Part shown: positions 6,853 to 37,264 of the stretch, one piece after another
How the letters are laid out: each line of letters opens with the position of its first letter
Numbering within the stretch: the stretch's first letter is position 1
From: Eubacteriales bacterium
Lineage (GTDB): Bacteria; Bacillota; Clostridia; Oscillospirales; CAG-382
Direction of reading: 5' to 3'
DNA length: 64,000 nucleotides
Assembly (NCBI GenBank): GCA_045592105.1
Contig: JAZNUB010000041.1
Location: 20,517 to 84,516 of the forward strand
The notes under the pieces: model-generated
Told to the model about the DNA's origin: nothing
The model's input: the letters and a program-made list of their open reading frames with translations, nothing else
Databases searched by the model: none
Translations under genes and position numbers: made by a program

Positions 6853-7176
6853 ATGGCAAATTTCGAGCTTGTGTCCAAATTCAAGCCCACGGGTGACCAG
6901 CCCGAGGCGATAGAAAAGCTTACAAACGGTATATTGTCGGGGCTGAACGAGCAGGTTTTACTGGGGGTTACGGGTTCGGGTAAGACCTTTACTATGGCTA
7001 ACATTATAGCCAAGGTAAACAAGCCCACCTTGGTGCTTGTTCATAACAAAACGCTTGCCGCACAGTTATGCTCTGAGTTTCGAGAGTTCTTCCCCAACAA
7101 CGCGGTAGAATACTTCGTATCCTATCGGAAAATTCCCCTAAATTTTAGTGCAATATGTTCATATAATTTCATTTAG
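6853..7176 (+). pseudogene. uvrB: uvrB 5' remnant (native N-terminal ~91 codons, then unrelated sequence and a stop)
   Basis: [23 protein letters not shown]...[54 protein letters not shown] parallels the N-terminus of the full-length UvrB at 35318. Homology stops at 7125. Confidence 0.9.
7067..7094 (+). repeat. 28-nt perfect block shared by the two uvrB 5' copies (putative att core, left copy)
   Basis: tatgctctgagtttcgagagttcttccc is identical to 35532-35559. Flanking uvrB-like sequence is diverged. Confidence 0.85.
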
Positions 7177-7330
7177 TTCGCTAAAAGATGCGCAAAGTGC
7201 ACATAAAATATACGATTTTGCAATGCGGAAAAATCGTCAAAATGACCTGATTCGTCATCGAAAATAGAAGGTCATAGGGACGAACTCAAATTGAATATCG
7301 ATGGAATCAGGACGAATTAAAATATATAAT

Positions 7331-7380
7331 AGTCAGCAATATTATTGTGCCTATCGGCACGAGTATTGCTGACTTTTTTT
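7331..7380 (+). terminator. rho-independent terminator
   Basis: Stem agtcagcaata (7331-7341) pairs with tattgctgact (7364-7374), followed by a T run. Confidence 0.75.
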
Positions 7381-7539
7381 ATATGAAATCCTGTGTAAAA
7401 AATTTTTTGAAAAAATTCAATTTTTTTATAGACGTTTTTGCTTTTTTCGACATTTATATAGTGGAGACATTAGATAAATCTCAAAAATATTATTTTATAG
7501 GTCATGTTAAGCCAAAAACTCAAGATAAGGGAGCGTAAA

Positions 7540-8070
7540 ATGGGGAATATACTGCAACGTATCATTTATTATGCATCGTGTGCTACTCCCATAGCAATTA
7601 CATTTTCAATAGTATGGTGCATTCAAGAGCATACATGTTTAGTTCCTTCAATTATAATCTTGGTAGGCATATTTATATTAATCCTTTTCAAAAAGTTATT
7701 TTTGTATGCACTTAAATCATCACAAATAACTACGGTAAACGTGATAGAAGTTATCCCAAAAGATGGATGGGTACTTGCGTATATAATTTCTTACTTGTTC
7801 CCATTTGTGAGCTTTGTAATAGACGATGTTGATTATTTATTGTTCGGTATACTTTCGGTATTATTTGTAATCATTGCCGGATGTACGCATTCCGCAACGC
7901 CAAATCCTATCCTATGGGCATTCGGATATCACTTTTATGAATTGAAAAGTAAACACGGTATGTCCGGTTACATTTACGCATGTAAAGGCAAATTATGTAC
8001 TCCAAAGGATATAAAGACCGCTAGGCGTTATTTTGACTTGTTATTAGTAGAAGATAAATCTGAAAGGTAA
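7540..8070 (+). CDS. small 4-TM membrane protein, KwaA-like
   Basis: Start moved to MGNILQRII (AAGGGAG RBS). Four hydrophobic helices in ~176 aa. A 4-nt gap separates it from the next gene. Size and topology match Kiwa KwaA. Confidence 0.5.
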   Translation: MGNILQRIIYYASCATPIAITFSIVWCIQEHTCLVPSIIILVGIFILILFKKLFLYALKSSQITTVNVIEVIPKDGWVLAYIISYLFPFVSFVIDDVDYLLFGILSVLFVIIAGCTHSATPNPILWAFGYHFYELKSKHGMSGYIYACKGKLCTPKDIKTARRYFDLLLVEDKSER

Positions 8071-8074
8071 AATT

Positions 8075-8962
8075 ATGTTTGAAAACAGCTCTGTATTTAT
8101 ATTCACAGAATCCAATTGCCAGCATAGTGTATTGAAATTAGAAATGGATGCTAATACACAAAAAGCGATTTGCGAGACCTTTAATCAAGCACAAATAAGC
8201 TTGACGGAAAATAAGAACAAAATCGTTTTTGACGGTAACTATAAACCTCACGATGATGAATTCCTTTCGATTTCCAATTTTACATTGGCGGATGAAATTA
8301 AGGACGCAATCCGAAACCCTTTAGGAGTTCATAGTTATTGTAAAAGTGAAGATAAATATCCCGAAATTAAAGCTATCTTTGTAGGTGAAAAAGAAGATAG
8401 CAACGATAAAGAAGTTTTTCGCATTGCTTTTCAGCGTTTCAAAAAGGAACAGTATATATCTACAAAACCGTTCAATTTGTTTTTTGATAACAAAACATTT
8501 ATTCAAGAAACAAGATTTGGTATAAGTATCGCTGATACTATTGACTGTTATTATGAAGACGGAGAGCTTCAATTCCTATCATTTTATTTCGCTCGTCAAA
8601 TATTTGATTTAAGCGATTATTATCGCACAGCAACCGATAATGAAGTAACCACATTTGCTGCCAGCGATAAACTGGCTTTAGAAGATAAAGATCTATTTAT
8701 CGCAAATGCGAATTCTTGGATAAGGAGAAAAATCGCATTGATAAACGACTCCGGAGTTTTAAACAATAACACCGCACATCAAATAAAGTCGTTAGCCAAA
8801 AAAATAGGGGTTTCAGTTGATGTTGCTGACAACAAGGTGGTAATCCCCAGAGACAAAGAACAGGTCAAAATTATTTTAGGCTTCTTAGACGAAGAAGCAT
8901 ATAAAGGCCCTTTTACCAAAAAGACCTTTTTAGCAAATTCCAAAAGAACGATCGGGAAATAG
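8075..8962 (+). CDS. KwaB-like (DUF4868-like) protein
   Basis: 295 aa, soluble, tightly coupled to the 4-TM gene. The central ...IDCYYEDGELQFLSFYFARQIFDLSDYY... and C-terminal ...KIILGFLDEEAYKGPFTKKTF... regions resemble DUF4868 as I remember it. Not verified by HMM. Confidence 0.5.
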   Translation: MFENSSVFIFTESNCQHSVLKLEMDANTQKAICETFNQAQISLTENKNKIVFDGNYKPHDDEFLSISNFTLADEIKDAIRNPLGVHSYCKSEDKYPEIKAIFVGEKEDSNDKEVFRIAFQRFKKEQYISTKPFNLFFDNKTFIQETRFGISIADTIDCYYEDGELQFLSFYFARQIFDLSDYYRTATDNEVTTFAASDKLALEDKDLFIANANSWIRRKIALINDSGVLNNNTAHQIKSLAKKIGVSVDVADNKVVIPRDKEQVKIILGFLDEEAYKGPFTKKTFLANSKRTIGK

Positions 8963-8967
8963 GGAGG

Positions 8968-9876
8968 CTACAACTGATTTCTATAGTTGTATTTATTTAG
9001 CACTTGACGTTTGCGCTTGATACTGACTTCGGTATAAATTTCCGTTGTTGCTACGCTGCTATGCCCTAGAAGCTCCTGAACAGAACGAAGGTCTGCGCCG
9101 TTTGATAACAGATTGGTTGCTAATGTGTGACGAAGGCAATGTGGCGTTGCCTTTTCAGTTATTTTCGCGCTTTGTTTTGCGCTTTTGAATATGTATTCTA
9201 TGCCGTGTATACTTATTTGATTGCCATAGCGATTTACAAATACCTTATCGGTATAAAGTTCGGTTTTGTTACGGTATTTAAGCCATTGAGTAAGATTGTG
9301 CCAGGTTTCCGGGCAAGAAATATATATCAGCCTTTGCTTTCTACCCTTGCCGTGTATAAGTATTGTGTGTTCAGATGAAATAATGTCTGACAACGAAATG
9401 TTGGATGCTTCTTCTATACGAATTCCCGTGCATATAAGAATGTCAAGTAAGGCAAGGTTGCGTGCGTTTTTCCATTTTGCAGCTTCGGTATTTGATTGTT
9501 CGAAGCGCTTGTAGACAGCCTCCAAAAGAGAGCACACTTCCTTTTTGGTAAGTGTTTTGGGAAGGCGTTTAGCTTTTTTGAATTTGAATACATTAGCGTA
9601 ATAGTTTTTGTCTGTGTATCCTTTTTGATTAAGATACGCAAAAAACATTTTCAGTACAATGAGTTTTCGGTTGATTGTGCTGTCAGATAACTGTCGTGTA
9701 TCCATAAGATATGAAACATATTTAACAACCGTTTCTTCGTTGATGTCATCATCAAGAATATAGTTATTAAAATCTTTCAAATCTGAAAAGTAGGCAGTTA
9801 TTGTTTTAACCGATAGGTTCTTAGTGGAGCGTATGTGCTCCAAAAATTCGTTAGTAATGCTCTGATATTTGTTCAT
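8968..9876 (-). CDS. tyrosine recombinase, XerC/XerD-like
   Basis: 302 aa. Catalytic-signature motifs TGIRIEE (R), HCLRHTLATNLL (HxxR), LLGHSSVATTEIYTEV (H...Y). Confidence 0.9.
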   Translation of the reverse strand: MNKYQSITNEFLEHIRSTKNLSVKTITAYFSDLKDFNNYILDDDINEETVVKYVSYLMDTRQLSDSTINRKLIVLKMFFAYLNQKGYTDKNYYANVFKFKKAKRLPKTLTKKEVCSLLEAVYKRFEQSNTEAAKWKNARNLALLDILICTGIRIEEASNISLSDIISSEHTILIHGKGRKQRLIYISCPETWHNLTQWLKYRNKTELYTDKVFVNRYGNQISIHGIEYIFKSAKQSAKITEKATPHCLRHTLATNLLSNGADLRSVQELLGHSSVATTEIYTEVSIKRKRQVLNKYNYRNQL

Positions 9877-9951: not shown

Positions 9952-10006
9952 TTACAATAACTACTTATTATTGTGAGATTACGAACACAGGATATTATTT
10001 TATTAT
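9952..10006 (+). repeat. R1: 55-bp element, perfect inverted partner of R2
   Basis: ttacaataactacttattattgtgagattacgaacacaggatattattttattat. Contains the palindrome ACAATAA-N7-TTATTGT. Ends 31 bp before the ATG at 10038. Confidence 0.95.
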
Positions 10007-10037
10007 CAATGATAAGTCTAGAAAATGAGGTGTCATT

Positions 10038-11498
10038 ATGGATGGCGTAGAAAAATCTAACATTTATATGGAGGATGGTCAGGATCATGAGTGCTGTAGT
10101 CTTACAGATATGGTATTCAAAGATCTCGACTATAGCCAATATAAGAACCCTATTTCTTTCTTTAGAAGCGATTTTAGTCGCAGCAGATTCTACAGTTGTA
10201 CATTCAATCGAAATTCGTTTGGGCGGGCAGATTTTATTGATGTCTTAATTAAAAACACAGAATTTGAATCTGTTGATTTTGGTTCTTGCTTGCTTAAAAA
10301 CGTATTGCTCGAAAAAGTGATTTTTTCTCGTAACAGTTATCGCGGTATAGCAATCCAATATACATGTTTTAGGAAGTGTGTTTTCAGAAATGAGGATTTC
10401 ATCACCAATATGTATCATTGCGAATTTCACGAGTGTACATTCATAAACTGTACATTCAAAAAATCATCTCTTGATTCTAATACATTTTCAAATTGTGAGT
10501 TTATCAAAGTAGATATGTCAGAGTGTATTGCAGAGAATTTAAAATTCGGTAATTGCTCGTTACGAGATGTATTCCTTGGAGCTAATCTTTGGACAACCTA
10601 TTTATATCGAGACACAGATATATACAGCTTTGGCTTTAAGTATAGAGGTAAACAAGTTGATATTTGGAATGGAGATCCTGCATCATTTGTAGGCGGATTG
10701 TTACAGAAGGAACTATTCTTTGAGTACTTTAATGTTTTAATAATCGGTGATCTCATTCCCCAATATGGCTTTGCATGTGAATTTGAAAGATTATTCCCCC
10801 AAATAATGACACTATCTTCACAGCAAAGGAAGAGAACGATTATAAAAATACTGGATATGCTCCTATTTTATCAAAACTATCAAAAGCTTCCAATTGGCGA
10901 ATATCTTTCTGTGTATACTTACTTGCTTCAAATGAATTGGGGAGATACTCCATTTGATGAAGTACTTATATACAATGCTGAATTGTTCAAAATTCAAAAA
11001 TCCATGGAGCAGTTAGACTTTGATTTGTCCTACATTAGAAGCTTTCCAACCAACGCTATCTGTATATCTAAGTATCATATCAACTGTGATGATGCTGCAA
11101 TTGCGCGGGAGTATTTAGAAAATGTCTTTAATTCAGCAAATCATCTGTTATGTGGTAATGAGTATAGTCAGCCATTAATTAAAGTAATTAATGAGGAAAA
11201 AGGGTCTGTAATTCTAACGATAGCTTCTGCTGCAGTTTTAGCACTGCTTGTATCATATGTTGCCAAAAAGGTTATGCACAATTTACATAGTATTCAAATA
11301 GAACACGGAATCAAAAAGCAATTATTAAGAAGTTTAACGGAGGGAGGAACAGATATATCCGATATCAAAAAAAGCTGTACGCTTGCCCAAAAACTAGATT
11401 TGCTGCCCAATGAAAAAGATTCTGAGCACATTAATCGTCTTTCATCCGAACTCACTAAGGGTGAGATACTTGATATCATTCTAAATTTCCTATTTTAG
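10038..11498 (+). CDS. pentapeptide-repeat protein with C-terminal TM helix
   Basis: Residues ~30-190 are runs of pentapeptide repeats (FSRSRFYSCTFNRNSFGRADFIDVLIKNTEFESVDFGSCLL...). One hydrophobic helix VILTIASAAVLALLVSYVAKKV sits near residue 400. GAGGTG RBS. Confidence 0.8.
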   Translation: MDGVEKSNIYMEDGQDHECCSLTDMVFKDLDYSQYKNPISFFRSDFSRSRFYSCTFNRNSFGRADFIDVLIKNTEFESVDFGSCLLKNVLLEKVIFSRNSYRGIAIQYTCFRKCVFRNEDFITNMYHCEFHECTFINCTFKKSSLDSNTFSNCEFIKVDMSECIAENLKFGNCSLRDVFLGANLWTTYLYRDTDIYSFGFKYRGKQVDIWNGDPASFVGGLLQKELFFEYFNVLIIGDLIPQYGFACEFERLFPQIMTLSSQQRKRTIIKILDMLLFYQNYQKLPIGEYLSVYTYLLQMNWGDTPFDEVLIYNAELFKIQKSMEQLDFDLSYIRSFPTNAICISKYHINCDDAAIAREYLENVFNSANHLLCGNEYSQPLIKVINEEKGSVILTIASAAVLALLVSYVAKKVMHNLHSIQIEHGIKKQLLRSLTEGGTDISDIKKSCTLAQKLDLLPNEKDSEHINRLSSELTKGEILDIILNFLF

Positions 11499-12660
11499 TG
11501 ATTCCTTCAATCAAGCATTGTTGATCAAGAAGTAGGTTTACGCGGAACGAATACAAGCCTTCCTCCCGATACAGATAACGTGAATGTGGTGTTGTTAGAA
11601 CTCCCGTCTTTTTTAAAATGTCCAACGCAAACTGGGTGTCATCTGTTTTTTCCGTATTTGGAACAGATAACAACGCAAAGTACCCACAGTTGGTAGAAGA
11701 AATCACTGTGCGTGTATCTCGTAATATTGCTTTTATCATCTTGTATCGATTCTGCGCAAGTTTTGCATTTTCAGCTATTAAACTTGTTAGAGTTTGAGAC
11801 GATACGAGTGAATATATCTGTGGAACCAGATTAACTTGTTGCTGTGCCATTGAACCTACCATAAATACAGAAAGGCGGAGTATCCTTTTCATTATTTTAG
11901 GAGAAGCAAATACAAGTGCAAATTTAGCCCCATTTAAAAATACTCGTTTTGATATTGACTCGATAAACACGTAATGCTCAGCGGAGCTTATTGCTTGAAA
12001 AACAGGAGAATTGAACATATAATATGATGGATTGAAAATATTCCATGGCATGCCGCCATACACATAATCCATAACAAGGCATACATTATGTTTGTTGCAC
12101 AGTGTAACAATACTCATTATTGTTTCAGTACTGAGTTCAATGCCACAACCAAATAGCGGGTTGGTAATTATAAGTGTATCAATGGAATTGCTAACGAAAT
12201 AGTTTTCTATAATATCGTTATGTAGCGAAAAATTATCGTTTGCACACAATTTATATTCAACGACATTGAAATCCAGTTCATCAAGCAGATTAAGCGTGGA
12301 AAAATACACAGGAGTGACAACCAATGCACTGTGTCTTCCTGCTTCTTTCAACGATGATAGTGTAAGCATTATGCCAGATGTACCATTTGACCCGATTGTA
12401 AAACTGTCCTTATGGAGCGAAATTGAATACTGATTTGAAAAAAATTTTTGAATAGTATCGCGATAACCTTCTTCGTCTGTCCAAAAATAGTACTTCTGAA
12501 CATCTGAAAGCTGCACAGAGTTAAGTGCTAAGCTTGGCATGTGAATGCTGTTATAATCAGCATCCCAATCCGATAGAAAAATTGGACTTGTGCCCGTTCT
12601 CTGGTAATAGGCAATTTTTGCTTGCATTATTGCTTTGATACTAGTATTATATCGTCTCAT
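11476..12660 (-). CDS. PLP-dependent aminotransferase-fold protein (class I/II-like)
   Basis: ITNPLFGCG (compare NPxNPTG), VMDYVYGG (compare DEVY) and SISKRVFLNGAKFA (SxSK PLP-lysine motif). ATGA overlap with the upstream GNAT gene. 23-nt convergent overlap with the pentapeptide gene. Confidence 0.7.
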   Translation of the reverse strand: MRRYNTSIKAIMQAKIAYYQRTGTSPIFLSDWDADYNSIHMPSLALNSVQLSDVQKYYFWTDEEGYRDTIQKFFSNQYSISLHKDSFTIGSNGTSGIMLTLSSLKEAGRHSALVVTPVYFSTLNLLDELDFNVVEYKLCANDNFSLHNDIIENYFVSNSIDTLIITNPLFGCGIELSTETIMSIVTLCNKHNVCLVMDYVYGGMPWNIFNPSYYMFNSPVFQAISSAEHYVFIESISKRVFLNGAKFALVFASPKIMKRILRLSVFMVGSMAQQQVNLVPQIYSLVSSQTLTSLIAENAKLAQNRYKMIKAILRDTRTVISSTNCGYFALLSVPNTEKTDDTQFALDILKKTGVLTTPHSRYLYREEGLYSFRVNLLLDQQCLIEGITKIGNLE

Positions 12661-13319
12661 TCTTTTTCCTGCCTTGAGATTAAAATAAGGGTCTTGTTTT
12701 CAGATCCTAGTGCAATACCTTCATAACCACATCGGAGCATTAGGTTTAACTGATTTATTTCTCCTCTTGGGACGACAAACATTTTTTGATCGTTATCTTT
12801 CTCCTGCAGAGGTAAATTTGCGCACATAATAAACCGTTTTACCCCATAGATTTCATCATGCAAAACAATTCGTTGCTTTATTTTAAAAGCCAATGCCAGA
12901 CTAGGCGTATTTTGAGGTGATACCGTGCTCAATAAGATAGTAAATTGAGGATCGATATGTAACATCAAATATCGAATAAGCCGTTCAGCTATTCCCAATC
13001 TTCTGAATTCGGGCACAATACAAATGTGCTCCATTTGCACAACAGAAAGAAGTTTTTTCTCATCATAATGGAGCAAGTGTCCAAGGTTATTCTTACCTCT
13101 TTTAGGAAAAACAAATGATACGAATCCGATGAGAGCGTCTTCATAAAAAGCCCCCATCGTGTGGCCGTATCCAGAAATGATTTTAATGATGTAGTATAAA
13201 CTAGGGGGGATAAATAAGTCATTGCTTAATGTTGAAGTAACGATTTGCAAACAACGAGAAATCTGATGTATGTCATCCAAATTCAATAATCTTATTGTAA
13301 GATGTTTCTCAAAATTCAT
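12657..13319 (-). CDS. GNAT-family N-acetyltransferase
   Basis: Motif A ICIVPEFRRLGIAERLIRYL. Start moved to MNFEK because the track start at 13373 lies inside repeat R2. Confidence 0.75.
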   Translation of the reverse strand: MNFEKHLTIRLLNLDDIHQISRCLQIVTSTLSNDLFIPPSLYYIIKIISGYGHTMGAFYEDALIGFVSFVFPKRGKNNLGHLLHYDEKKLLSVVQMEHICIVPEFRRLGIAERLIRYLMLHIDPQFTILLSTVSPQNTPSLALAFKIKQRIVLHDEIYGVKRFIMCANLPLQEKDNDQKMFVVPRGEINQLNLMLRCGYEGIALGSENKTLILISRQEKE

Positions 13320-13339
13320 CAATCCACCACGCATACTGT

Positions 13340-13394
13340 ATAATAAAATAATATCCTGTGTTCGTAATCTCACAATAATAAGTAGTTATTGTAA
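13340..13394 (-). repeat. R2: 55-bp element, perfect inverted copy of R1
   Basis: Its reverse complement equals 9952-10006 base for base. Lies immediately upstream of the minus-strand GNAT/aminotransferase operon. Confidence 0.95.
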
Positions 13395-13449
13395 GGTAAG
13401 TACGTACGTCAACAGAACACGTAAAAAAGAAAAATAACCTAATTATATC

Positions 13450-13467
13450 ACAATAATCCGGTTATTG
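13450..13467. promoter_or_regulatory. degenerate fifth copy of the repeat core overlapping a minus-strand promoter-like sequence
   Basis: acaataatccggttattg (CAATAA-N5-TTATTG). The minus strand reads caataaccggattattgtgatataat, an extended -10 TGnTATAAT aligned to the attattgtgagatta segment of R1-R4. Confidence 0.5.
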
Positions 13468-13553
13468 AAATTGAATTATTAAGTTTGTGCGCATGAACGG
13501 CAAGCTGTATCATAACTGATTTTAATATGATTTAAGAATAAATATAAAATACG

Positions 13554-13612
13554 ATAATCCTACAATAACTGCTAATTATTGTGAGATTATGATAGCTAGG
13601 GACTGTAATTTG
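13554..13612 (+). repeat. R3: 59-bp element, perfect inverted partner of R4
   Basis: ataatcctacaataactgctaattattgtgagattatgatagctagggactgtaatttg. Shares the core tacaataact..attattgtgagatta with R1/R2. Confidence 0.95.
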
Positions 13613-13647
13613 TTTATATCAAATTAAAACAAAAGTACAATGTTGAT

Positions 13648-14718
13648 TCACTTAGGAATGGCATATACTACTGACTCCTCATAATAACAAGAATGATGCC
13701 GAAAATATAAATCATATCCCAAACCTAATTTATGTATGTATTGAGGAATTTCTACATAATCTGATATTTTATGATATGAGCATACTGCTAATATTGGTTT
13801 ACAAGATTTAATAGTTTTTATTGCGCCTTCAAGTGCCTGCAATTCTGCCCCCTCGATATCTAAAGCGATTATTGCAACATCGCTGAGGCAGCAATCATCT
13901 AATAGTAATGTTTGAACAATACTATTTCCGTTACCTTCTGCGCACACTTTGGCTCCTAGTTCATTTGAATTATCAAAGGAAATGTAACCATTGCTGTTAT
14001 AAAGTGCTTTTTCAATTATTTTTATTTTAGACAAATTACAAAACTTTTGACGCAAATATTCTGTCCAAATTGAATTCGGCTCGAAAAGTATGGCATTCTT
14101 TATATCTGTTTGCGTTAGCGCCCTATCAATGTGACTTCCATTATAGGCGCCTCCAAGAATTATTGTTCCTTTTTCTGGAACGTTTGGCACTATATCATTT
14201 CCCCAGTATGGATGCCCAGAAAAAAGCATAGGATCATATACGCGTCCTATTATTCGTGATTTCCAATATTCCTTATATAGTTTTTGAGAAGTTGCATCTG
14301 CGAAAAGTTTCGAAGTGTCAATAATTTCTAATTCATGATCCAATGCATAAAAATATGCTTCAATCGATGTACATGGTAGTATTGGGAAATAGTAGCATTG
14401 CAAATGATCATATAGCTCACCTAAATAATTATAAAACTCCTGATCTTCTGCGGCAATCAATATTATAGCGTTCTCTGAGCGTATGTTTTTTATTTCGTGT
14501 AACGGAAATACAGGAATTCCGCGCACACCGTTTGGATACTCTTCTGGGGAAAAATCGTATATTTTGTATGGCAACGGCAATCGCGGATTGGTTTCAGAAC
14601 AAAATGGTTCTAATAGAAAAGACTCTGCATGCTTCGCACCCAAACATAGCAATGATTTAGTTCCGTAAAAAACTGGAGTTAGCATTTTTGTAATAACGGA
14701 AATACTATCAAGACTCAT
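13648..14718 (-). CDS. FkbM-family SAM-dependent methyltransferase with N-terminal extension
   Basis: GGAYNGSHI and IALDIEGAELQALEGA motifs of FkbM methyltransferases. Start moved to MSLDSISV (AGGAGG, then 7 nt, then ATG). Confidence 0.7.
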   Translation of the reverse strand: MSLDSISVITKMLTPVFYGTKSLLCLGAKHAESFLLEPFCSETNPRLPLPYKIYDFSPEEYPNGVRGIPVFPLHEIKNIRSENAIILIAAEDQEFYNYLGELYDHLQCYYFPILPCTSIEAYFYALDHELEIIDTSKLFADATSQKLYKEYWKSRIIGRVYDPMLFSGHPYWGNDIVPNVPEKGTIILGGAYNGSHIDRALTQTDIKNAILFEPNSIWTEYLRQKFCNLSKIKIIEKALYNSNGYISFDNSNELGAKVCAEGNGNSIVQTLLLDDCCLSDVAIIALDIEGAELQALEGAIKTIKSCKPILAVCSYHKISDYVEIPQYIHKLGLGYDLYFRHHSCYYEESVVYAIPK

Positions 14719-14751
14719 ATTTAAACCTCCTGTGAAAGGATTGATACCACA

Positions 14752-19684: not shown

Positions 19685-19729
19685 GATATTTACCCCTCTT
19701 TAACTTAATGTAGTCCAATAAAAAGATTG

Positions 19730-19788
19730 CAAATTACAGTCCCTAGCTATCATAATCTCACAATAATTAGCAGTTATTGTAGGATTAT
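19730..19788 (-). repeat. R4: 59-bp element, perfect inverted copy of R3
   Basis: Its reverse complement equals 13554-13612. Ends 45 bp upstream of the class III aminotransferase start codon. Confidence 0.95.
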
Positions 19789-23855: not shown

Positions 23856-23861
23856 TATAAA

Positions 23862-23951: not shown

Positions 23952-23988
23952 TCCCTAAAAATGTGTCGATTATCCCAAAGGGTTGAAA
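23952..23988 (+). promoter_or_regulatory. conserved 29-nt box (copy 2) plus -35-like TTGAAA
   Basis: tccctaaaaatgtgtcgattatcccaaag matches 21738-21766 at 27 of 29 positions. It has the same 2-3 nt spacing to a -35-like hexamer, upstream of the lipoprotein/ABC genes. Confidence 0.6.
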
Positions 23989-24054
23989 GTGTATTTTTCT
24001 TATTATACCATATATGTGTACCGAAAAATAGTCTTTGAAAGGTAGCTGAAGTAT

Positions 24055-24903: not shown

Positions 24904-24924
24904 GAAGAAAGGAAAGGCTGTAAA

Positions 24925-25776: not shown

Positions 25777-25790
25777 ACGAGGTAGTATGT

Positions 25791-27498: not shown

Positions 27499-27499
27499 A

Positions 27500-28153: not shown

Positions 28154-28785
28154 GCAAGGTGAAAAGGAAAACGGTTAAACGCATTATAATAGTTTTGCTT
28201 ATAATAGCAATATTCAGCACTTGGGGCGTAGGTTTTTATACTGTAAACAGTCAAAGTGACAAGCAGGTAGTTAAAATATATAACACGGGTGATACCGTAG
28301 CAATAGGCGACAACTTTTGCCAAACTGCAAACGAAGATAGCAATGGATACGAGTTCACGGTGATTGGCGGAACGGTAAAAACCACAGAACAATTTTTAAA
28401 AGATAACGGCAAAGAGCCCGATTATTTACATAAATTAAACCCTAAAGGCTTTGTTCCCAGCTACGTTTATCTTTTAGAGGTAAAAGTGCGCAACGTGGGC
28501 AACACAAACCAAAAGGGCTTTTCCCTCGTTGGAATGCCGCTCGTTACTTCTAACCTACAGCTTCAGGTACATGATGCTATGTTTGATATACTGTATCCTA
28601 AGCTTGCCGGATTTTACGGCTTTGCAGTAAGGCCCGATACGGAAATGATAATGTACTTGCCCTATGCCGCAACAAAAAGCATAGACAAATACTGTAACTA
28701 TGATTATTTAACATCTGAGCAGTTTAGCTTTGTTATTTCCTGGTTTCCCGAGGAAATTAGAATTAAGGTTGAAACAAGCGTTTGA
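28150..28785 (+). CDS. N-terminally anchored extracytoplasmic protein
   Basis: GTG start overlapping the ATPase stop codon. One TM helix IIIVLLIIAIFSTWGVGFY, then a beta-rich domain. Function unknown. Confidence 0.55.
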   Translation: MSKVKRKTVKRIIIVLLIIAIFSTWGVGFYTVNSQSDKQVVKIYNTGDTVAIGDNFCQTANEDSNGYEFTVIGGTVKTTEQFLKDNGKEPDYLHKLNPKGFVPSYVYLLEVKVRNVGNTNQKGFSLVGMPLVTSNLQLQVHDAMFDILYPKLAGFYGFAVRPDTEMIMYLPYAATKSIDKYCNYDYLTSEQFSFVISWFPEEIRIKVETSV

Positions 28786-28837
28786 TAAGAGGGAGAGCAG
28801 GTACAATGGTACTTATACTGTTAGAAAGGGAAAATAT

Positions 28838-29701
28838 ATGAAAAAAACTTTATGTCTCGTCACAACGTTTGTTATAATAATTGCATTCGCTTCTTGCAGT
28901 GGAAACGGTGCTAACAATAATGCCTCGCAAGACATTACAAGCAAAAATGAAATTTCCAAAACTCATAGTTCTACAGAAGATGATTTTTCTGTTATGGATA
29001 CGCGTTCCGAAGATGATTATACTTCACAACTGACCCAGTCGGAAATTGATGATAGTTATGATACATCAGAACCTGATGACAACTCCATTGTTTCCGAATC
29101 GGATAACAGTTCAGTCGTTCCTGAACCTGATGACAGTTCTGTTGTTTCTGAGCCTGATGATAGTTCTGTTGTTTCAGAACCCAATGATAGCTCTGCTCCC
29201 TCTGAACCGGATACAAGTATTGATACACCGCCTATAACCGTAAACAGCTCGCCGGCGGATATATTTAGTGCTGTTTCAAGTAATAATAACATTCTTTCGT
29301 TAAACACAATAATGACATCGATCATCAAGAATTATTTGAACGGACAAGACGTTTTGTATATCCGCAGTTTTTCCTCGGGAGATTCAAAGCTTTTTGATCT
29401 TGCGGTAACAGATACCTCTGTTATTGACGGTGCTATATGCGTTGAGCCTTATGAAGGGCCTATAGAGTATTGCTGTTACTTAATCAAATTGAAAAACGGC
29501 GTGGACAAGGACAGCATAAAAGCGGAAGTTTTGTCTTCCATGGACAAAAATCGTTGGGGTTGTATTACCGCCGAAAAAGCCATTGTTATTGATAGCGGAA
29601 ACATTTTGCTTGCTATTATGGCGAGCAAGGCTGAAACCGATGCATACGCAAAGGCTTTTGAGTCAGTAATGGGCAGCGCCGGTACGGTTTTGTCTAAATA
29701 A
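28838..29701 (+). CDS. lipoprotein with acidic 9-aa tandem repeats and a DUF4358-like C-terminal domain
   Basis: Start moved to MKKTLCLVTTFVIIIAFASC. Contains SEPDDNSIV/SESDNSSVV/PEPDDSSVV/SEPDDSSVV/SEPNDSSAP repeats. The DUF4358 call rests on its common association with MBOAT/DHHW genes in Clostridia. Confidence 0.6.
   Translation: MKKTLCLVTTFVIIIAFASCSGNGANNNASQDITSKNEISKTHSSTEDDFSVMDTRSEDDYTSQLTQSEIDDSYDTSEPDDNSIVSESDNSSVVPEPDDSSVVSEPDDSSVVSEPNDSSAPSEPDTSIDTPPITVNSSPADIFSAVSSNNNILSLNTIMTSIIKNYLNGQDVLYIRSFSSGDSKLFDLAVTDTSVIDGAICVEPYEGPIEYCCYLIKLKNGVDKDSIKAEVLSSMDKNRWGCITAEKAIVIDSGNILLAIMASKAETDAYAKAFESVMGSAGTVLSK
29066..29218 (+). repeat. 27-bp in-frame tandem repeat (about 5.5 units)
   Basis: Encodes the SEPDDSSVV-type repeats inside the lipoprotein gene. 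Confidence 0.85.
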
Positions 29702-29705: not shown

Positions 29706-31103
29706 ATGGTTTTTTCAAGTATAAGCTTTATATATTTCTTTTTACCGGCAGTGCTTGTTTTGCACACGGTGCTTCCGAAAAGGTTTAAGAATACCTCACT
29801 TTTAATATCAAGCCTTGCGTTCTATTTTGCTTCAGAGCAGTTTTACATAGTGCTTTTATTGTTTTCTTCGGTAGTTGACTACTGCTGTGCTATGCTTATA
29901 AGCAAAGGTAGGTTGAAAAAAGCTTCTGTCACTACTTCTATAATTGTAAACCTATCATTACTCGGTGTTTTTAAGTATTTTGACTTTTTTGTGGGGAGCA
30001 TAAACGGTGCGTTCGGTATATCCATACCGCTCCTTCGCGTTGCGCTTCCTGTCGGAATAAGCTTTTACACCTTTCAAACCATGAGCTACACTTTAGACGT
30101 ATACATGGGCAGAGTTAAGGCAAGCAGAAACATTTTGAATTTTCTTACCTATGTAACGCTTTTCCCACAGCTTATAGCAGGGCCTATCGTTAGATACGAA
30201 GATGTGGAGAAGGAGCTTTGCGACAGGAAAGTAAGCCTCTCTGTGTTCGCAGAGGGTATTAGCGTTTTTGCGGTTGGACTTGCAAAGAAGGTTATTCTTT
30301 CAAACCAGCTTGCAGAGCTTGTGGAAAAGTTCAGCTCATCAAACGAACAAACGGTTTTGTTCCATTGGGTGTACATTGTTGCTTATACCCTACAGGTTTA
30401 TTTCGACTTTTCAGGATATTCGGATATGGCGGTAGGAATAGGTAAAATGTTAGGGTTCAGTTTTCCTCAAAACTTTAACTATCCTTTTATTGCTTCTACG
30501 GTTGCAGAATACTGGAGACGTTGGCATATAACTCTCGGAACGTGGTTCAGAGATTATTTGTATTTTCCTTTGGGCGGCAGCAGATGCGGTAAGATTAAAA
30601 CCGTTAGAAACATTTTTATCGTGTGGTTTTTAACGGGGCTTTGGCACGGTGCCGCTTGGAACTTTGTGCTTTGGGGCGTTTTCTTTGCCTTTGTTCTTTG
30701 TGCAGAACGATTTGTTTTTCAAAAGCTTTTGAAAAGAACACCTAAAGCTTTGAAGCATATATACGTGCTGATAACGGTAGCAATAAGTATGGTTATATTT
30801 AACGGCAACGGAATATCTGCTTCCGTAAAACAGCTTTTGGCTATGGTGGGAATAGGAGCGGATGGAGTTTTTGGCAACGAAGCGCTATACTATCTTAAAA
30901 GCTATGCGGTGGTAATTATCATTTCCGTTATAGCCGCAATACCGGTGTTTAATAGAGCAAGAGAAAAGCTTTTACAGCGCTCAAGACACTATAAGGTGGC
31001 GGAAAACCTGCTTGCTCCCATAATACCTGTCGTTTTAATTCTTGTTTCAACGGCGTATTTGGTGGACGGTTCTTTTAATCCGTTTTTGTATTTTAGGTTT
31101 TAG
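29706..31103 (+). CDS. MBOAT-family O-acyltransferase (AlgI/DltB-like)
   Basis: YWRRWHITLGTWFRDYLYFPLGG contains the conserved MBOAT His region. Multi-TM. Confidence 0.9.
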   Translation: MVFSSISFIYFFLPAVLVLHTVLPKRFKNTSLLISSLAFYFASEQFYIVLLLFSSVVDYCCAMLISKGRLKKASVTTSIIVNLSLLGVFKYFDFFVGSINGAFGISIPLLRVALPVGISFYTFQTMSYTLDVYMGRVKASRNILNFLTYVTLFPQLIAGPIVRYEDVEKELCDRKVSLSVFAEGISVFAVGLAKKVILSNQLAELVEKFSSSNEQTVLFHWVYIVAYTLQVYFDFSGYSDMAVGIGKMLGFSFPQNFNYPFIASTVAEYWRRWHITLGTWFRDYLYFPLGGSRCGKIKTVRNIFIVWFLTGLWHGAAWNFVLWGVFFAFVLCAERFVFQKLLKRTPKALKHIYVLITVAISMVIFNGNGISASVKQLLAMVGIGADGVFGNEALYYLKSYAVVIIISVIAAIPVFNRAREKLLQRSRHYKVAENLLAPIIPVVLILVSTAYLVDGSFNPFLYFRF

Positions 31104-31114
31104 GGGGTGCTGAA

Positions 31115-32203
31115 ATGACAGGAAGACTAAAAGACATTATTACAATTATACTGTTTGGTGCTATTATTTTTGGATTTTCTTTAACCACCATTTTTATGCC
31201 CAAAGAAAAGTATTCCTTTAGCGAAAGACGAGAGAACGCCACTTTCCCTACAGAAAGCATTACAGACAAGAAGTTTTACGACGGCTTTGATGCATATATG
31301 CTGGACCATTTTACTCTTCGTGAAGAGTTCCGCACCGTTAAAGCTTTAAGCCATTACTATGTTTTCGGTCACAGCGATAATAACGGAATTGCCATAATAG
31401 ACGGCAATGCGGTGAAGCTATCCGAAACCTTGGACGAAGATTCCGTAAGGTATACAGCTCGTCATATTTCCGATATACAAAAACGGTATTTATCGGGTTG
31501 CCGTGTTTTTGTTTCCCTTGTTCCGGATAAGGCGTATTTTGCATCTAAAAACGCTTTTTATCCCGGGATCGATTACAAAAAGATGCAAAAGCTTCTTATG
31601 GAAAACATAAGCGGTGCGGAATATATAGACATATTTCCTTTGCTATCATTGGAGGGCTACTATAAAACAGACCCCCATTGGAATCAAGCACGTATTTTAC
31701 CTGTGGCAAAAGAAATAGCAACAAATATGGGTGCCGAATTAAAGGATAAGTATACCGAAAAGGAGCTGTACCCCTTTTACGGTGCGTATTACGGACAGTC
31801 TGCGCTACCGCTTAAACCCGAGGATATGGTGTATTTACAAAGCGAAACCTTATCTGCTTGCAAGGTTACGGTAGTTAATTCTGCCGGAAAAAGAGAAACA
31901 ACGGTTTATGAAACAGATAAGTTTGGAAGTAAAGATTCCTACGATTTGTTTTTATCGGGTGCCGCAAACATTGTGGAAATACAAAACCCTAAAAGTACAA
32001 GCGGCAAGGAATTGATTATATTTCGTGACTCTTTCGGCAGCAGTCTTGCGCCTTTGTTGGTTGAAGCCTATGATAAGGTCACTCTTATTGATACAAGATA
32101 CATATCAATGCACATCCTTGAAAAATATGTGCGATTCAACAACCAAGACGTTTTATTTTTATATAACACGGCTCTTGTGAATAGCTCCTTTGTGTTGAAG
32201 TAA
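31115..32203 (+). CDS. DHHW-family (AlgJ/AlgX-like SGNH) protein
   Basis: N-terminal TM anchor. YKTDPHWNQ motif. Usual partner of clostridial MBOAT genes. Confidence 0.75.
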   Translation: MTGRLKDIITIILFGAIIFGFSLTTIFMPKEKYSFSERRENATFPTESITDKKFYDGFDAYMLDHFTLREEFRTVKALSHYYVFGHSDNNGIAIIDGNAVKLSETLDEDSVRYTARHISDIQKRYLSGCRVFVSLVPDKAYFASKNAFYPGIDYKKMQKLLMENISGAEYIDIFPLLSLEGYYKTDPHWNQARILPVAKEIATNMGAELKDKYTEKELYPFYGAYYGQSALPLKPEDMVYLQSETLSACKVTVVNSAGKRETTVYETDKFGSKDSYDLFLSGAANIVEIQNPKSTSGKELIIFRDSFGSSLAPLLVEAYDKVTLIDTRYISMHILEKYVRFNNQDVLFLYNTALVNSSFVLK

Positions 32204-32304: not shown

Positions 32305-32553
32305 GTTAAGGTTGCACATAGCGTTCACAATTTGTTAATGCTATGAGACAGCCCCACATATTTTCAAACACACTTCGTTTTGGAGTGTGTTTTGTTTTTT
32401 ACTTGCCAAAATGAATCCCGTATCAAATATTTTCTGCGTAAATTTCGCAAAGGTAAAGGAGGAATAGCACTGTGAGCAAATAAAACGTCAGCAAGCTTCA
32501 CATTGTGTACTGACCTGTTGCGAGAAATAAATTCAGAAAGGATTTGATACACA

Positions 32554-33729
32554 ATGGGAAAGGAACAAGGAAAAGCGTTCTTCTACAACGGATCGTGGTA
32601 TCACAGAACGAAAATACTTCGAAATGATTTTACTGTCGGGTACAGTAAGAAGGGCGGCTTTGCCACCGAGAAAGAAGCATTGGAAAGCAATGCGCTGATG
32701 GAGGCAGAATTTGAGGCAAAGCAAAAAGCTTTGAGTGTGAAAAACCGCACAAGTATAACCTTAGTGGATTATCTTGCTTATTGGTTCTATCAGGTGGAGG
32801 TGCCGAGAATCTCATCGTCAACACGGATGGTGTGGGAGATCGTGTTTACGGACATTCTGAAACCGCATATAACGGATATCAAGCTGGCACATTGTACGGT
32901 TGAGTATTACGACACGCTGCTTGAAACGGCATCGGCTTATTCTCAGTCTGCCGGCAACAAAGCAAGGGAGTTTTTGTACAACGCCCTTAAAACGGCGGTA
33001 AATGACGGCTATCTGCAAAGCAATCCGATTGAGAATACAAAACGATATCCACGTGATAAGCCTAAGATTACTATTCTCTCAAAAGCAGAGCTTAAAAAGC
33101 TGATGGTTGAAGTCAGCAAGTCAAATTGGCTACTTGAAGTAATGTTAGCGTTATTTTGCGGCTTGCGTAAGGGTGAAATCTACGGACTAAAGTTTTCGGA
33201 TTTTGATATGGAACAGGAAACCGTCAAAATTCAAAGACAGGTGACGCAGGAATATCATTTCAACGAGGAGGGTAAGAGAATCGGTCAGAAGCCCTCTGAA
33301 AAGCCGCCAAAGACCGAGAACAGCTATCGTACACTCCGTGTGCCGTCTGTTATTATTGCAGAGTTGAAGAACCGTAAAAAACTGATAGAAGCCAACAAGG
33401 AGAAAATGGGGGATGCGTACATTGACAACGATTATATTTGCTGTCAGAAGAACGGCGAATCCTCCAGTATGTCCGCTATCAATATTGCACTCAACAAGGC
33501 TTGTAAGAAAAGCGGTGTCCGTCAGGTATCGGTACATTCCTTCCGTCATATTTATGCAACCGTTCTGTTGGAACGGGGTGTGCCGTTGGCAAAGATATCC
33601 GCCCTGCTCGGTCACAGTTCCATTCATACGACCTTTGAATATTACTGCGAGGTAATCGACGAGCGTGAAAACATCAAGACCTATATTGATGAGACCTTCT
33701 CGGTCGAGGAGGATCAGGATGGCATTTGA
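32554..33729 (+). CDS. tyrosine integrase (phage-integrase family with N-terminal arm-binding-type domain)
   Basis: FCGLRKGEIYGL (R), HSFRHIYATVLL (HxxR), LLGHSSIHTTFEYYCEV (H...Y). N-terminal FFYNGSWYHRTK...GYSKKGGFATEKEA is typical of the Tn916-like Int N-domain. Confidence 0.9.
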   Translation: MGKEQGKAFFYNGSWYHRTKILRNDFTVGYSKKGGFATEKEALESNALMEAEFEAKQKALSVKNRTSITLVDYLAYWFYQVEVPRISSSTRMVWEIVFTDILKPHITDIKLAHCTVEYYDTLLETASAYSQSAGNKAREFLYNALKTAVNDGYLQSNPIENTKRYPRDKPKITILSKAELKKLMVEVSKSNWLLEVMLALFCGLRKGEIYGLKFSDFDMEQETVKIQRQVTQEYHFNEEGKRIGQKPSEKPPKTENSYRTLRVPSVIIAELKNRKKLIEANKEKMGDAYIDNDYICCQKNGESSSMSAINIALNKACKKSGVRQVSVHSFRHIYATVLLERGVPLAKISALLGHSSIHTTFEYYCEVIDERENIKTYIDETFSVEEDQDGI

Positions 33730-35058
33730 GAGCTATGTGGATTGGAAAATAAGTGATGCGCTGAAAATCAAGGATAAATACGGCTACAGAGTCACGCTCA
33801 TTTTTGCAGACGGAACCAAAAAGGTGCAGCAAAAGAGTGGCTTTAAGAGTGAACGTGAATGCAAAAAGGCGAGGAATGCCACAGTTGCCAAGCTGTATAA
33901 CGGCAGTTATATTGTAAACGAAGATATCACCCTGAAGGAGTTTTTTGAATGTTGGGTAAATGATGTTGTTGTAAAAATGAAAGCCAGTACCTATCGTGGA
34001 TTTACGTACATTATCCGCAACAACATCAATCCCAAAATCGGCAATATTAATCTTGCAGAGTAACAAAAGGACACTTGACTGCCTTTTATACCGAGCTTTG
34101 CAACAGCTCATACGATAATGCCCGCCGTTGCCGTGTTGTCTTGAAGTTGTGCCTTCGGTACGCTGTCGGCAAAAAACTGATTCCCGAAAGTCCTGCAGAG
34201 AATCTTCTGCTTCCAAAGCAGAACAAAAAGAAAACGGAGTATCACACCATAACCATTAAACCGGAGCAGACACTTACGGCTGAGCAGTTGAAATTACTGA
34301 TTGATAAAAGCAAGGACACGCCGATTTATCTGTTTATCCTGTTTGCCGGTCTTATGGGTATGCGTAAAGGTGAGATCATTGGTCTTAAATATTCCGACAT
34401 TGATTATGCAAAGCAGACCATTACCGTTCAGCGGCAGTTGGGTGAGGAAATCGTTGTTGATCCCGAAACATCGGAGCATAAGATTTTGAAGAAACAGGAA
34501 ATCACAACGAAAACCAAATCCAGTACACGAGTGCTGGATATTCCCGACATCGTTTTCAATGCGATTATAGAGGAACGCAAGAAGTATGAAGCCAACCGCA
34601 GACGAAGATCGACTACATTTCAGGATTTGGATTTTATAGTTTGCTCGTCCTACGGCAGACCGAGAAGTTCGGGTTATGCATCACCGCTGTATAAAAAGCT
34701 CCTGCGTGAAAACGGTTTGCCGGACATACGCTTTCACGACCTGCGGCACACCTTTGCAACGCTATTGCTGAAAAAAGACATTGATCTGAAGGCAATATCC
34801 AATGCGCTCGGTCATTCCAAAAGCATTATTTCGGTGGATGTATACGGCGATAATCAACAGATCATTGCCGACGGAGTAGAGGAAATCATTCCTTTCATCC
34901 ATGAGATAATGCCCGAGGACGTGCTTGCACATTTGGAGGAAGGGCAGGAAAAACAGCGTGTGAATTTCGAACCGGATATCTGTTTTCCGAACGAGCTTGC
35001 TGATGACATTATGCAGGATGTGATGAATAATCGAGCATCCTGCGGGAAAGATAATTAA
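33719..35058 (+). pseudogene. second tyrosine integrase, interrupted by a 1-nt frameshift near 34058-34062
   Basis: The ATG at 33719 overlaps the first integrase's stop codon. Frame 2 ends ...KIGNINLAE* at 34063. The adjacent frame continues VTKGHLTAFYTEL... and carries GMRKGEIIGL, HDLRHTFATLLL and ALGHSKSIISVDVYGD. Restoring one g in gcagag-taac would fuse the frames. Confidence 0.75.
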
Positions 35059-35317
35059 CGGAACAAAAGAGGGCGGTTTTTGGATTTTTGTAAAAAAGTC
35101 CGCCGTCCTCTTTTATTTTATCTAAAAGTGTGATATAATGTTATATTGAAGATTTTTGTCATTCACCCAGTTCGTGCAGTTCGCACTTTCCGTTAAAATG
35201 ACCTGATTCGTCATCAGCCATTTTTGGGCGGTTTTTGAGCGGAAACGGAATATGCGCTTTTGACGAATTTTGGGCTTATAGAAGCGATACTAAATCCCCA
35301 GAAAAGGAGGTTTTACC

Positions 35318-37264
35318 GTGGATAAATTTGAATTGGTGGCTCCCTACGCACCGACAGGAGACCAGCCGGAGGCTATTAAAAAGTTAACCGAAGGCATACA
35401 AAAAGGCTTAAAAGAGCAGGTTTTACTGGGTGTTACAGGTAGTGGTAAGACCTTTACTATGGCTAACATTATAGCAAAGGTAAACAAACCAACACTTGTG
35501 CTTGTTCACAACAAAACGCTTGCCGCACAGCTATGCTCTGAGTTTCGAGAGTTCTTCCCGAACAACGCGGTTGAATACTTTGTTTCCTACTACGACTACT
35601 ATCAGCCGGAGGCGTACGTGCCGGGTAAGGACGTTTATATTGAAAAGGATGCTTCTATAAACGACGAGATAGACAAGCTGCGCCACAGCGCAACAAGTGC
35701 TTTGTTTGAGCGTGAGGACGTTATTATAGTGTCAAGCGTTTCCTGTATTTATTCTTTGGGTGACCCGCTTGAATACCGCAAGCAGGTTATATCCATCCGC
35801 CCGGGGCTTCAAATGAGCCGCGAAACACTTATTAAGCGGCTTGTTGCCGTGCAGTATACGAGAAGCGACATAGGCTTTGAGCGTAACAACTTCCGCGTGC
35901 GTGGGGACGTGGTGGAGATATTCCCGTCCAATTCGGGCGCAGAGGCTATAAGGGTGGAGTTTTTTGGTGACGAGATAGACCGTATCTCCGTTATAGACAC
36001 CGTTACGGGTGAGCTAAAGGCAAGGCTTAACCACGCGGCTGTGTATCCGTCCTCACACTATGTAACGGACGAGGAGCTGCGTAAAGCCGCGCTTACGGAG
36101 ATATACGACGAGATGCTTGAGAGGGTAGAGTATTTTGAAGCGCAAGGCAAGCTGATAGAGGCACAGCGTATCAAAGAGCGTACGATGTTTGATATGGAGC
36201 AGATACGCGAGATAGGCTATTGCAGCGGCGTTGAAAACTATTCCCGCGTGCTTTCGGGCAGGAAGCCCGGCAGCGTGCCGTACACCCTGCTGGACTATTT
36301 TCCCGAGGACTTTTTGCTGTTCATAGATGAAAGCCACGTAACGGTGCCGCAGGTGCGCGGTATGAGCGGGGGGGACGGCGCAAGAAAGAAGAATCTTATA
36401 GATTACGGCTTCCGCCTGCCCTCTGCATACGATAACCGCCCGTTAAGGTTTGAGGAGTTTGTGGCTAAAAAGGGGCAAACGGTTTACGTTAGCGCAACGC
36501 CCGGCGAATACGAAAAGAACTGTGCCGAGGCGATGGCGGAGCAGATAATAAGACCCACGGGCTTGCTTGACCCTACGGTGGAGGTACGCCCCGTAGCAGG
36601 GCAAATAGACGATTTGCTTGGCGAGATAAGAAACTGCATAGCCAACGGTGAGAGGGTTCTTGTTACCACGCTTACAAAAAAGATGGCGGAGGATTTAAGC
36701 GAGTATTTTTTGCAAAACGGTGTTAAAACCAAGTATTTGCACTACGATATAGAAACCATCGAGCGTATAGAGCTGCTTCGTCAGCTCCGCGCAGGGGAAT
36801 ACGACGTGCTTGTGGGCATAAACCTGCTTCGCGAGGGGCTGGATTTGCCTGAGGTTGCGCTGATAGGCATACTTGATGCGGATAAGGAAGGCTTTTTGCG
36901 CTCGGAAATGAGCCTTATACAAACGATAGGGCGTGCGGCGCGTAACGCAAACGGGCGCGTAATAATGTATGCGGACAAGATAACGGGCTCTATGCGCCGC
37001 GCTATGGATGAAACCAACCGCCGCCGCGCAAAGCAGGACGCGTACAACAAGGCAAACGGCATAACGCCCAAAACCATAATCAAGGAGATACGCGCGCCGA
37101 TAGAGATAACCGTAAAGGGCGCGGCGCCTGACGGAAAGCTTAACAAGGCAGAAAAGAAGCAGCTTATAGAAAAGCTTCAAAAGCAAATGAAGCAGGCGGC
37201 AAAGGATCTGGATTTCGAAACGGCAGCCGCGTTGCGTGATAAGATACGCTCGCTTTTAGCGTAA
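35318..37264 (+). CDS. uvrB: excinuclease ABC subunit B
   Basis: 648 aa, GTG start with [19 protein letters not shown] Walker [11 protein letters not shown], and the C-terminal UVR domain ...[11 protein letters not shown]. Confidence 0.97.
35532..35559 (+). repeat. 28-nt perfect block (putative att core, right copy)
   Basis: Identical to 7067-7094. Confidence 0.85.

Follow-up and report, generated by a model that had tools for sequence, protein, structure and literature searches.

A probable integrative island in a Clostridia genome that divides uvrB and supplies a replacement for its 5′ end

Why should uvrB begin twice on a single bacterial contig, with 28.2 kb of compositionally different DNA between its two beginnings, and which of the two is the gene's own? 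The question arises from a stretch of 64,000 nucleotides from Eubacteriales bacterium (Clostridia; Oscillospirales; CAG-382), which we call the window (assembly GCA_045592105.1, contig JAZNUB010000041.1, positions 20,517 to 84,516 of the forward strand) and in which codons 1–91 of uvrB are present in direct orientation at 6853–7125 and again at 35318–35590. An original prediction, made from the letters of the window, held that an island had been inserted into uvrB and had brought along its own replacement for the 5′ end of the gene. Our analysis makes it very likely that window positions 7126–35317, together with the 5′ part of the right-hand uvrB, are a site-specific integrative island of a paired-integrase family that uses uvrB as its target.

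A duplicated uvrB start and its native copy

The duplication was as predicted. The left uvrB open reading frame (ORF; 6853–7176) runs on from the repeat into the island, where it ends at 7176 with a length of 107 amino acids, and the right ORF encodes a complete UvrB of 648 amino acids with all UvrB Pfam domains and is followed by uvrA. Because this is the sole long direct repeat in the region and both copies are identifiable as UvrB N-termini, it is not a chance repeat. The two copies are 79% identical in nucleotide sequence over nt 1–272 (counted from the start of uvrB), with 59% identity over nt 1–87 and 89% over nt 88–272, and at nt 272 the similarity ends abruptly. Four perfect runs lie within this tract: the longest spans 32 nt (6979–7010 = 35444–35475), the 28-nt block at 7067–7094 = 35532–35559 that had drawn attention originally was confirmed, and the others measure 21 and 17 nt. 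The DNA between the copies has a GC content of 38.5% (35% in its left half and 41% in its right half), against 47–48.5% in the flanks.

We take the left copy as the host's own uvrB start, and the right copy as element-borne, because the left copy has a host-like GC content at third codon positions (GC3; 0.60, compared with 0.61 for the rest of uvrB and 0.45 for the right copy), an N-terminus of the LVSKFKP type (…ELVSKFKP…) that resembles those of island-free sister species, a dockerin gene just upstream, as in several sister species, and the same type of 5′ end as an island-free strain found in a metagenome. The island is absent from close relatives, as had been anticipated: a single uvrB–uvrA was present in 11 other species of the genus or family (one genome each). 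The island-free strain, from metagenome run X3, is ~98.8% identical to the window across uvrB and uvrA and is present at ~30x depth. Its 344-nt contig (32x) corresponds to window positions 6723–7065, which comprise the host promoter region and the left-type 5′ end, and its 1320-nt contig (31x) corresponds to 35585–36904, with contigs of 73 and 62 nt (27–30x) bridging the two; depth was zero over both 7138–7400, at the left end of the island, and 34000–35367, which covers the integrases and the right-type 5′ end. Run X1 repeated this pattern at 3–5x depth. In the tiled contigs of X3 and, at low depth, in X1, the empty site thus has the predicted form: a left-type 5′ end that leads into the rest of uvrB. 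Upstream of 6723 the 30x organism of X3 departs from the window.

The opposite polarity would make the right 5′ end the native one and have the left copy arrive with the island; it draws on the UvrB N-termini of relatives, which are only slightly nearer to the left copy (81–87% protein identity) than to the right (80–86%). We nevertheless regard it as extremely improbable, given the difference in GC3, the left-type end of the island-free strain, the dockerin synteny upstream of the left copy, and the finding, described below, that in unrelated hosts the right 5′ end, with the region upstream of it, lies beside the integrases at 95–100% identity.

With the left copy taken as native, the right-hand uvrB is a chimera whose protein departs little from the original. 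Between the copies 79 of 91 residues are identical and all 12 differences fall within residues 1–32, so that the chimeric UvrB has 11 residues changed in positions 2–32 plus a GTG start replacing ATG. The codons of the Walker A motif lie in element-derived DNA, and the residues they encode are unchanged. The claim that the island replaces the ~90 N-terminal residues of UvrB, Walker A region included, therefore holds for the DNA but not for the protein, where residues 1–32 alone differ; similarly, the element does appear to target and restore the coding region of a repair gene, but to call uvrB essential overstates the case. In an exact cluster look-up the UvrB of the window and the 107-amino-acid stub were both singletons, with no conspecific protein record.

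Paired integrases beside uvrB in other hosts

Directly upstream of the right copy stand two tyrosine integrase genes, as predicted, except that the att-proximal one, int2, is frameshifted. Relative to the related metagenome contigs L035, L038 and L041 it has lost one T after position 34060, which leads immediately to a TAA. By inspection, the catalytic R, HxxR, H and Y are kept in both integrases, and both match only the generic Phage_integrase family, plus Xer-type models below cutoff. The ATG of int2 (33719) overlaps the stop codon of int1 (33727–33729), an arrangement that suggests co-expression, and from the conserved pairing alone we infer that both integrases would be jointly required. 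If the int2 frameshift is genuine and was not introduced in assembly, the island probably cannot move on its own. The int2 homologue of L041, a metagenome-assembled genome (MAG) of the Acutalibacteraceae, has a 1-nt frameshift of its own at ~1810–1822, a site that differs from that in the window, which suggests either recurrent decay of int2 or errors in such short MAG contigs.

The ~260 nt between the end of int2 and the right uvrB copy contain an extended −10 promoter-like sequence, TGATATAAT (35131–35139), which reading by eye found conserved in all related elements and for which a consensus promoter/terminator scan gave no call. From this predicted promoter, uvrB would now be transcribed from element DNA. 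At the left junction (attL) the host promoter, its ribosome-binding site (RBS) and the 107-codon stub remain, directed into the island toward a pair of Kiwa-type defense genes, with one weak terminator-like hairpin at 7354–7372. No LexA-type GAAC-N4-GTTC box was seen by eye upstream of either uvrB copy.

The integrases, the promoter region and the 5′ segment of uvrB are co-inherited across hosts. The 90%-identity protein cluster to which int1 of the window belongs has 49 members from gut metagenomes, and the metagenome contigs L035, L038, L085 and L042 each carry int1 (391 amino acids), an intact int2 (446 amino acids), the ~260 nt and uvrB, in that order. From the int2 stop to about nt 40–150 of uvrB, the window, L035, L038/L085 and L042 are 95–100% identical, and the remainder of uvrB in L038 and L042 encodes protein only 66–72% identical to that of the window, with different genes downstream. 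Because this segment is so highly conserved in front of the uvrB genes of different hosts, the promoter region, RBS and first uvrB codons are a property of the element, and the prediction that the right-type 5′ end moves with the integrases is borne out. L042 and L085 are near-identical elements in goat-gut Clostridia MAGs, and L041 is a third such element, in its Acutalibacteraceae MAG. In L035 (8714–9772) and L038 (844–1902), a third tyrosine recombinase gene (352 amino acids) lies upstream of int1.

The same left junction occurs in a second species of the genus, G010, where uvrB codons 1–90 are followed by the left end of the island (~90% identity) and then by KwaA and KwaB; another G010 contig starts within the repeat, at uvrB nt 88, and continues into uvrB–uvrA. 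The integrases were not found in G010, an 86%-complete draft in which the right end is unreadable past the contig that starts at nt 88.

These independent junctions bear on whether the locus could be an artefact of assembly or binning, with a foreign contig joined to a host contig through a conserved uvrB segment. Such an origin would be in keeping with a draft genome of 75 contigs and with related assemblies that break exactly in the repeat (G010:C35 and G001:C27), but we give it scarcely any credence: both junctions lie within one 85-kb contig with host DNA on either side, perfect identity between the copies extends over 32 nt at most, independent assemblies of the attL junction exist both for G010 and, as Logan contigs, for runs X10, X13 and X14, and the right-junction (attR) arrangement was assembled independently in L038, L042 and L085.

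The original prediction also proposed a survey for integrase homologues adjoining uvrB, which brought to light ~40 further species. When the intact int2 was used to scan GTDB species, each represented by one genome, 48 loci were found. L041, L042 and L085 are among them, and ~40, mostly in Lachnospiraceae, carry int1/int2 homologues 45–58% identical to ours (47–58% for int1), and the start of uvrB lies 300–500 nt downstream of the int2 homologue in nearly all loci that extend far enough. Cultured Lachnospiraceae are among the carriers: Lachnospiraceae bacterium M18-1, Eubacterium plexicaudatum ASF492 and Sporofaciens musculi WCA-9-b2. Several co-oriented uvrB 5′ copies are present in M18-1 (G042, KE159605.1; four copies, 126, 38 and 118 kb apart, at 1025521–1309005, ~283 kb), in ASF492 (G041; three copies at 5774330–5910980) and in G044 (two copies, contig G044:C76, 96427–161688), which indicates that uvrB-targeting elements of 7–129 kb each have probably stacked head to tail. 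In all members examined, the homology between copies ends at codon 90–92. The family is patchy rather than ubiquitous across Clostridia, since only two of 300 evenly drawn Clostridia species (that of the window and G215) had two uvrB 5′ copies. As a separate observation, a 2.7-kb contig of a sister species (L014; G001:C27) ends in a diverged, frameshifted uvrB 5′ fragment (2489–2739, ~66% amino-acid identity); the contig has no integrase, and G001 also has an intact native-type uvrB on a separate contig, so the fragment may be an old displaced 5′ end or a piece of another element.

Arm repeats and the position of strand exchange

The 21-nt sequence AAAATGACCTGATTCGTCATC has only two copies in the 64 kb, at the two ends of the island, compared with 0.01 expected by chance. 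One lies at −123 on the P arm (upstream of the element-borne uvrB start) and the other at +114 on the P′ arm (beyond the left homology boundary), and each is followed 57–62 nt downstream by an inverted GACGAAT. Members from Lachnospiraceae, whose integrases are ~48% identical to those of the window, carry a counterpart of this repeat, GTGACTTTATTCGTGTAATTG, at P −130 and P′ +119, with inverted copies at −60 and −80. We read the 21-nt repeats as predicted arm-type binding sites, and because arm repeats are conserved at matching positions on both arms even in such distant members, they point to integrase-driven, lambda-like site-specific recombination as the probable mode of insertion.

Where the strands were exchanged is less plain. 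The right copy is clearly element-derived to about nt 152–171 and a host-like mosaic beyond; it equals the right copy of G010 over nt 88–152 and equals L035 to the end of that contig, and over nt 181–254 hardly any differences separate the left copy from the right, whether in the window or in G010. The island-free strain of X3 is left-type to nt 171 and right-type over nt 174–180 (probably also at 192), a patch that is element-like in being rich in A and T at third codon positions (AT3); beyond the patch at nt 174–192 it reads as mixed in short Logan contigs, in tables that leave out mismatches near contig ends. This patch looks like the mosaic scar of a cured strain, and X3 may be a RecA-deletion derivative. 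We favor an exchange near the 3′ end of the homology, in GAATACTTYGTWTCCTA (nt 256–272), since throughout the family the homology stops at one codon and an element has no need of a mimic that extends past its crossover. A single fixed crossover does not by itself account for the varying switch point between element and host sequence, and homology-assisted resolution or a RecA-mediated exchange is possible. The 28-nt block that had been proposed as the crossover core is real, but that role is not demonstrated: the 32-nt block is longer and the switch point varies. A core at uvrB nt 20–37, considered on the basis of L038 and L042, was rejected for the window: there, host-type sequence reaches at least nt 171 in the left copy, and element-type sequence at least nt 152 in the right.

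The mosaic is also what host homologous recombination might leave if a Campbell-type crossover through the 272-nt uvrB look-alike were the main driver and the integrases were incidental or dead. The switch point differs between hosts (about nt 38, 152 and 172), the copies within each genome are near-identical over nt 181–254 as after RecA-type exchange or conversion, and int2 is frameshifted both here and in L041. We nonetheless judge this explanation unlikely. The integrase pair has been kept beside uvrB in ~40 species at 45–58% identity, which implies selection on the recombinases together with their site; distant members have kept the arm-type repeats at corresponding positions on both arms; every member examined shows the homology ending at one and the same codon (90–92); and RecA would find a poor substrate in copies that are 79% identical and have no perfect run above 32 nt.

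Several observations weigh against integration by a dedicated site-specific system. The element/host boundary in the right copy is not constant, lying at about nt 38 in L038 and L042, 152 in G010 and 172 in the window, and identity at the homology boundary is not perfect, with mismatches at nt 255, 264 and 267. No excised circle turned up: JGI metagenome scans for the attP-type junction that would run from the uvrB start of the element across ~260 nt to the left end of the island gave no matches; the island left end alone likewise gave 0 matches in the JGI metagenome scan, and in Logan contigs of runs containing island ends there were only attL- or attR-type junctions. The empty site in X3 is composed of short Logan contigs joined by depth, with no single spanning read. 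Because int2 is frameshifted, the present mobility of this copy is doubtful, and no transfer machinery was found that would carry the island between cells.

Site-specific integration, which we continue to prefer, probably proceeded as follows. The attachment site would lie inside uvrB and end at nt 272 (codon 91), directly before the codons of a conserved motif, and the attP of the element would bring with it, next to the integrases, an element-borne promoter-like region and RBS as well as a stretch that mimics uvrB codons 1–90. Recombination, presumably catalyzed by the two integrases, would leave the host promoter and the first 91 codons at attL as a dead 107-codon stub, and at attR would join the promoter and 5′ codons of the element to the remaining uvrB sequence, giving a full-length UvrB altered only in residues 1–32. 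The patchy host-like tract in the right copy might have arisen by later gene conversion between the copies or by homology-assisted resolution, and this copy of the island would now be immobile or need help in trans, given its frameshifted int2.

Island contents and known relatives

The features of the island are listed in Table 1. Its cargo appears to be accessory and defensive, beginning with KwaA and KwaB genes 4 nt apart that we assign to a predicted Kiwa defense system (the NCBIfam match of KwaA was below cutoff). The Xer-like recombinase that follows is not the island's integrase. Next to it, two cassettes are each enclosed by perfect inverted repeats (9952–10006/13340–13394, 55 nt; 13554–13612/19730–19788, 59 nt) with a common core, ACAATAA-7 nt-TTATTGT, and a spacer specific to each pair (CTACTTA versus CTGCTAA); the genome has no copies besides these four repeat sites, and 20 relatives have none at all. 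The cassettes look like independently invertible segments. Further right, two paralogous lipoprotein genes (~283 amino acids; 24055–25776) precede the ABC transporter genes, and their signal-peptide DNA is 88% identical over the first 138 nt. Within a 323-amino-acid ORF (28730–29701) for a probable lipoprotein, five tandem 27-nt repeats (29047–29218) encode a linker rich in Ser, Asp, Glu and Pro. The island is modular: only 32356–35434 (~90%) and the ABC transporter/DUF5028 region (79–82%) are shared with L035/L036.

Table 1. Features of the island and its junctions, in window coordinates
Feature	Positions	Strand	Evidence
Left uvrB repeat (attL), the host's original codons 1–91, orphaned; part of the 107-codon stub ORF (6853–7176), with native promoter and RBS upstream	6853–7125	+	GC3, N-terminus, X3 strain
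Island left arm (P′): predicted arm-type repeat AAAATGACCTGATTCGTCATC 7239–7259, inverted GACGAAT at 7312	7126–7500	+	~90% identical to the G010 sequence after truncated uvrB
Kiwa-type defense pair: KwaA 7504–8070, KwaB 8075–8962	7504–8962	+	PADLOC KwaA 6.9e-22, KwaB 3.2e-85; Pfam KwaB
Xer-like tyrosine recombinase beside two inverted-repeat cassettes	8968–9876	−	Pfam Phage_integrase 4.7e-37; XerC/XerD 219–233 bits, below cutoff
Two cargo cassettes, each within perfect inverted repeats (55 nt and 59 nt)	9952–19788	.	Repeats, Pfam, PADLOC
Cassette 1: pentapeptide protein, aminotransferase, GNAT			
Cassette 2: FkbM methyltransferase, 1207-aa SIR2-STAND protein, class III aminotransferase			
HTH-DUF3990 gene and overlapping DUF3791-like gene, candidate defense pair PDC-M42A/B	20032–21298	+	Pfam, PADLOC candidate models
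LytTR response regulator, GHKL kinase, two paralogous lipoproteins, ABC transporter, DUF5028	21789–28785	+	64–82% nucleotide identity with L035, L036
MBOAT acyltransferase and DHHW protein, variable cargo	29706–32203	+	Pfam; position held by third recombinase in L035, L038
Integrase 1 (int1), 391 aa, intact, R..HxxR..H..Y catalytic motifs	32554–33729	+	Pfam Phage_integrase 5.8e-22
Integrase 2 (int2), 446 aa in relatives, split here by 1-nt deletion	33719–35058	+	Pfam Phage_integrase ~5.7e-22; alignment with L035, L038
Island right arm (P): hairpin after int2, TGATATAAT 35131–35139, predicted arm repeat 35195–35215, inverted GACGAAT at 35263, RBS AAGGAGG	35059–35317	+	95–100% conserved in L035, L038, L085, L042
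Right uvrB repeat (attR), element-borne replacement 5′ end, clearly so to about nt 152–171	35318–35590	+	GC3 0.45; match to G010 right copy nt 88–152 and L035
Functional chimeric uvrB, 648 aa, then uvrA 37275–40109	35318–37264	+	ORF and Pfam

A Pfam scan of the 29 island ORFs of at least 110 amino acids found no conjugation, relaxase, coupling-protein or type IV secretion genes and no capsid, terminase, portal, replication or packaging genes; by this gene content the island is neither an ICE (integrative conjugative element) nor a prophage or phage satellite.

Among known systems, the closest counterpart we found is the dusA-specific islands, known along with prophages that have dusA-associated integrases; carriers of these islands have an island-derived dusA 5′ end, the original being displaced and restored on excision, and the islands have highly variable cargo with the integrase as the common feature and attachment sequences of 21–28 bp (Farrugia et al. 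2015, PMC4482086). As in those islands, a tyrosine-integrase island has here entered a conserved housekeeping gene within its 5′ part and replaces the 5′ end of that gene. It differs from them in its target (uvrB), its hosts (Clostridia rather than Proteobacteria), its two or three tandem recombinases in place of one and its ~272-nt gene mimic in place of a 21–28-bp attachment sequence, and it is known from sequence junctions alone. With its uvrB target and with integrases that match only generic models, it probably falls outside the dusA-associated integrase (DAI) family. ICEs of the SXT/R391 family, which are integrated in the 5′ coding end of prfC, supply a new promoter and N-terminal codons so that prfC stays functional; SXT is conjugative and has one Int plus Xis and a short core of ~17 bp. 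The uvrB island likewise restores its target gene with its own promoter and N-terminal codons, but unlike SXT it lacks conjugation genes and carries its integrases as a paired module.

Adjacent tyrosine recombinases, two or three in number, are also known from other elements, among them Tn554 with TnpA/TnpB and the recombinase-in-trio elements. Vibrio SE elements are reported to carry intA/intB (PMC9345347). In gene arrangement, the tandem tyrosine recombinase genes at one end of the uvrB island resemble those of Tn554, the recombinase-in-trio elements and the Vibrio SE elements. To our knowledge, none of these restores a target gene by means of a long gene mimic. A full-text literature search returned no report of uvrB as an attachment site, its matches being plasmid-borne uvrB, a mis-annotated gene of a phage-inducible chromosomal island (PICI) and unrelated texts, which agrees with the earlier remark that uvrB was not known as an integration hotspot. 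The kind of element, an island that restores the 5′ end of its target, is thus known, and the uvrB target is apparently unreported.

More tentatively, and with somewhat less than even confidence, we suggest an undescribed Clostridia family with an obligate recombinase pair and a ~270-nt mimic arm that exchanges with the host gene, a family that would move uvrB promoters and N-termini between species, leave scars in 'cured' strains and stack up to three elements. It is a possibility that the host uvrB promoter orphaned at attL has been co-opted for the first cargo operon (Kiwa), which, if true, would tie the expression of defense genes to the control of a repair gene.

With this island, uvrB would be added to the defined sites at which integrating elements land, which include prfC, dusA, tRNA/tmRNA genes and comK. 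Recognizing the site helps to delimit islands and their defense cargo in gut and rumen Clostridia genomes, the uvrB repeat explains frequent assembly breaks at uvrB, and mosaic 5′ ends counsel caution in the use of the uvrB 5′ region as a phylogenetic marker. Cultured mouse-gut carriers make the system experimentally tractable for the questions that it raises: why two recombinases would be needed, why the mimic is so long, and how the swapped promoter and N-terminus may affect the regulation of uvrB.

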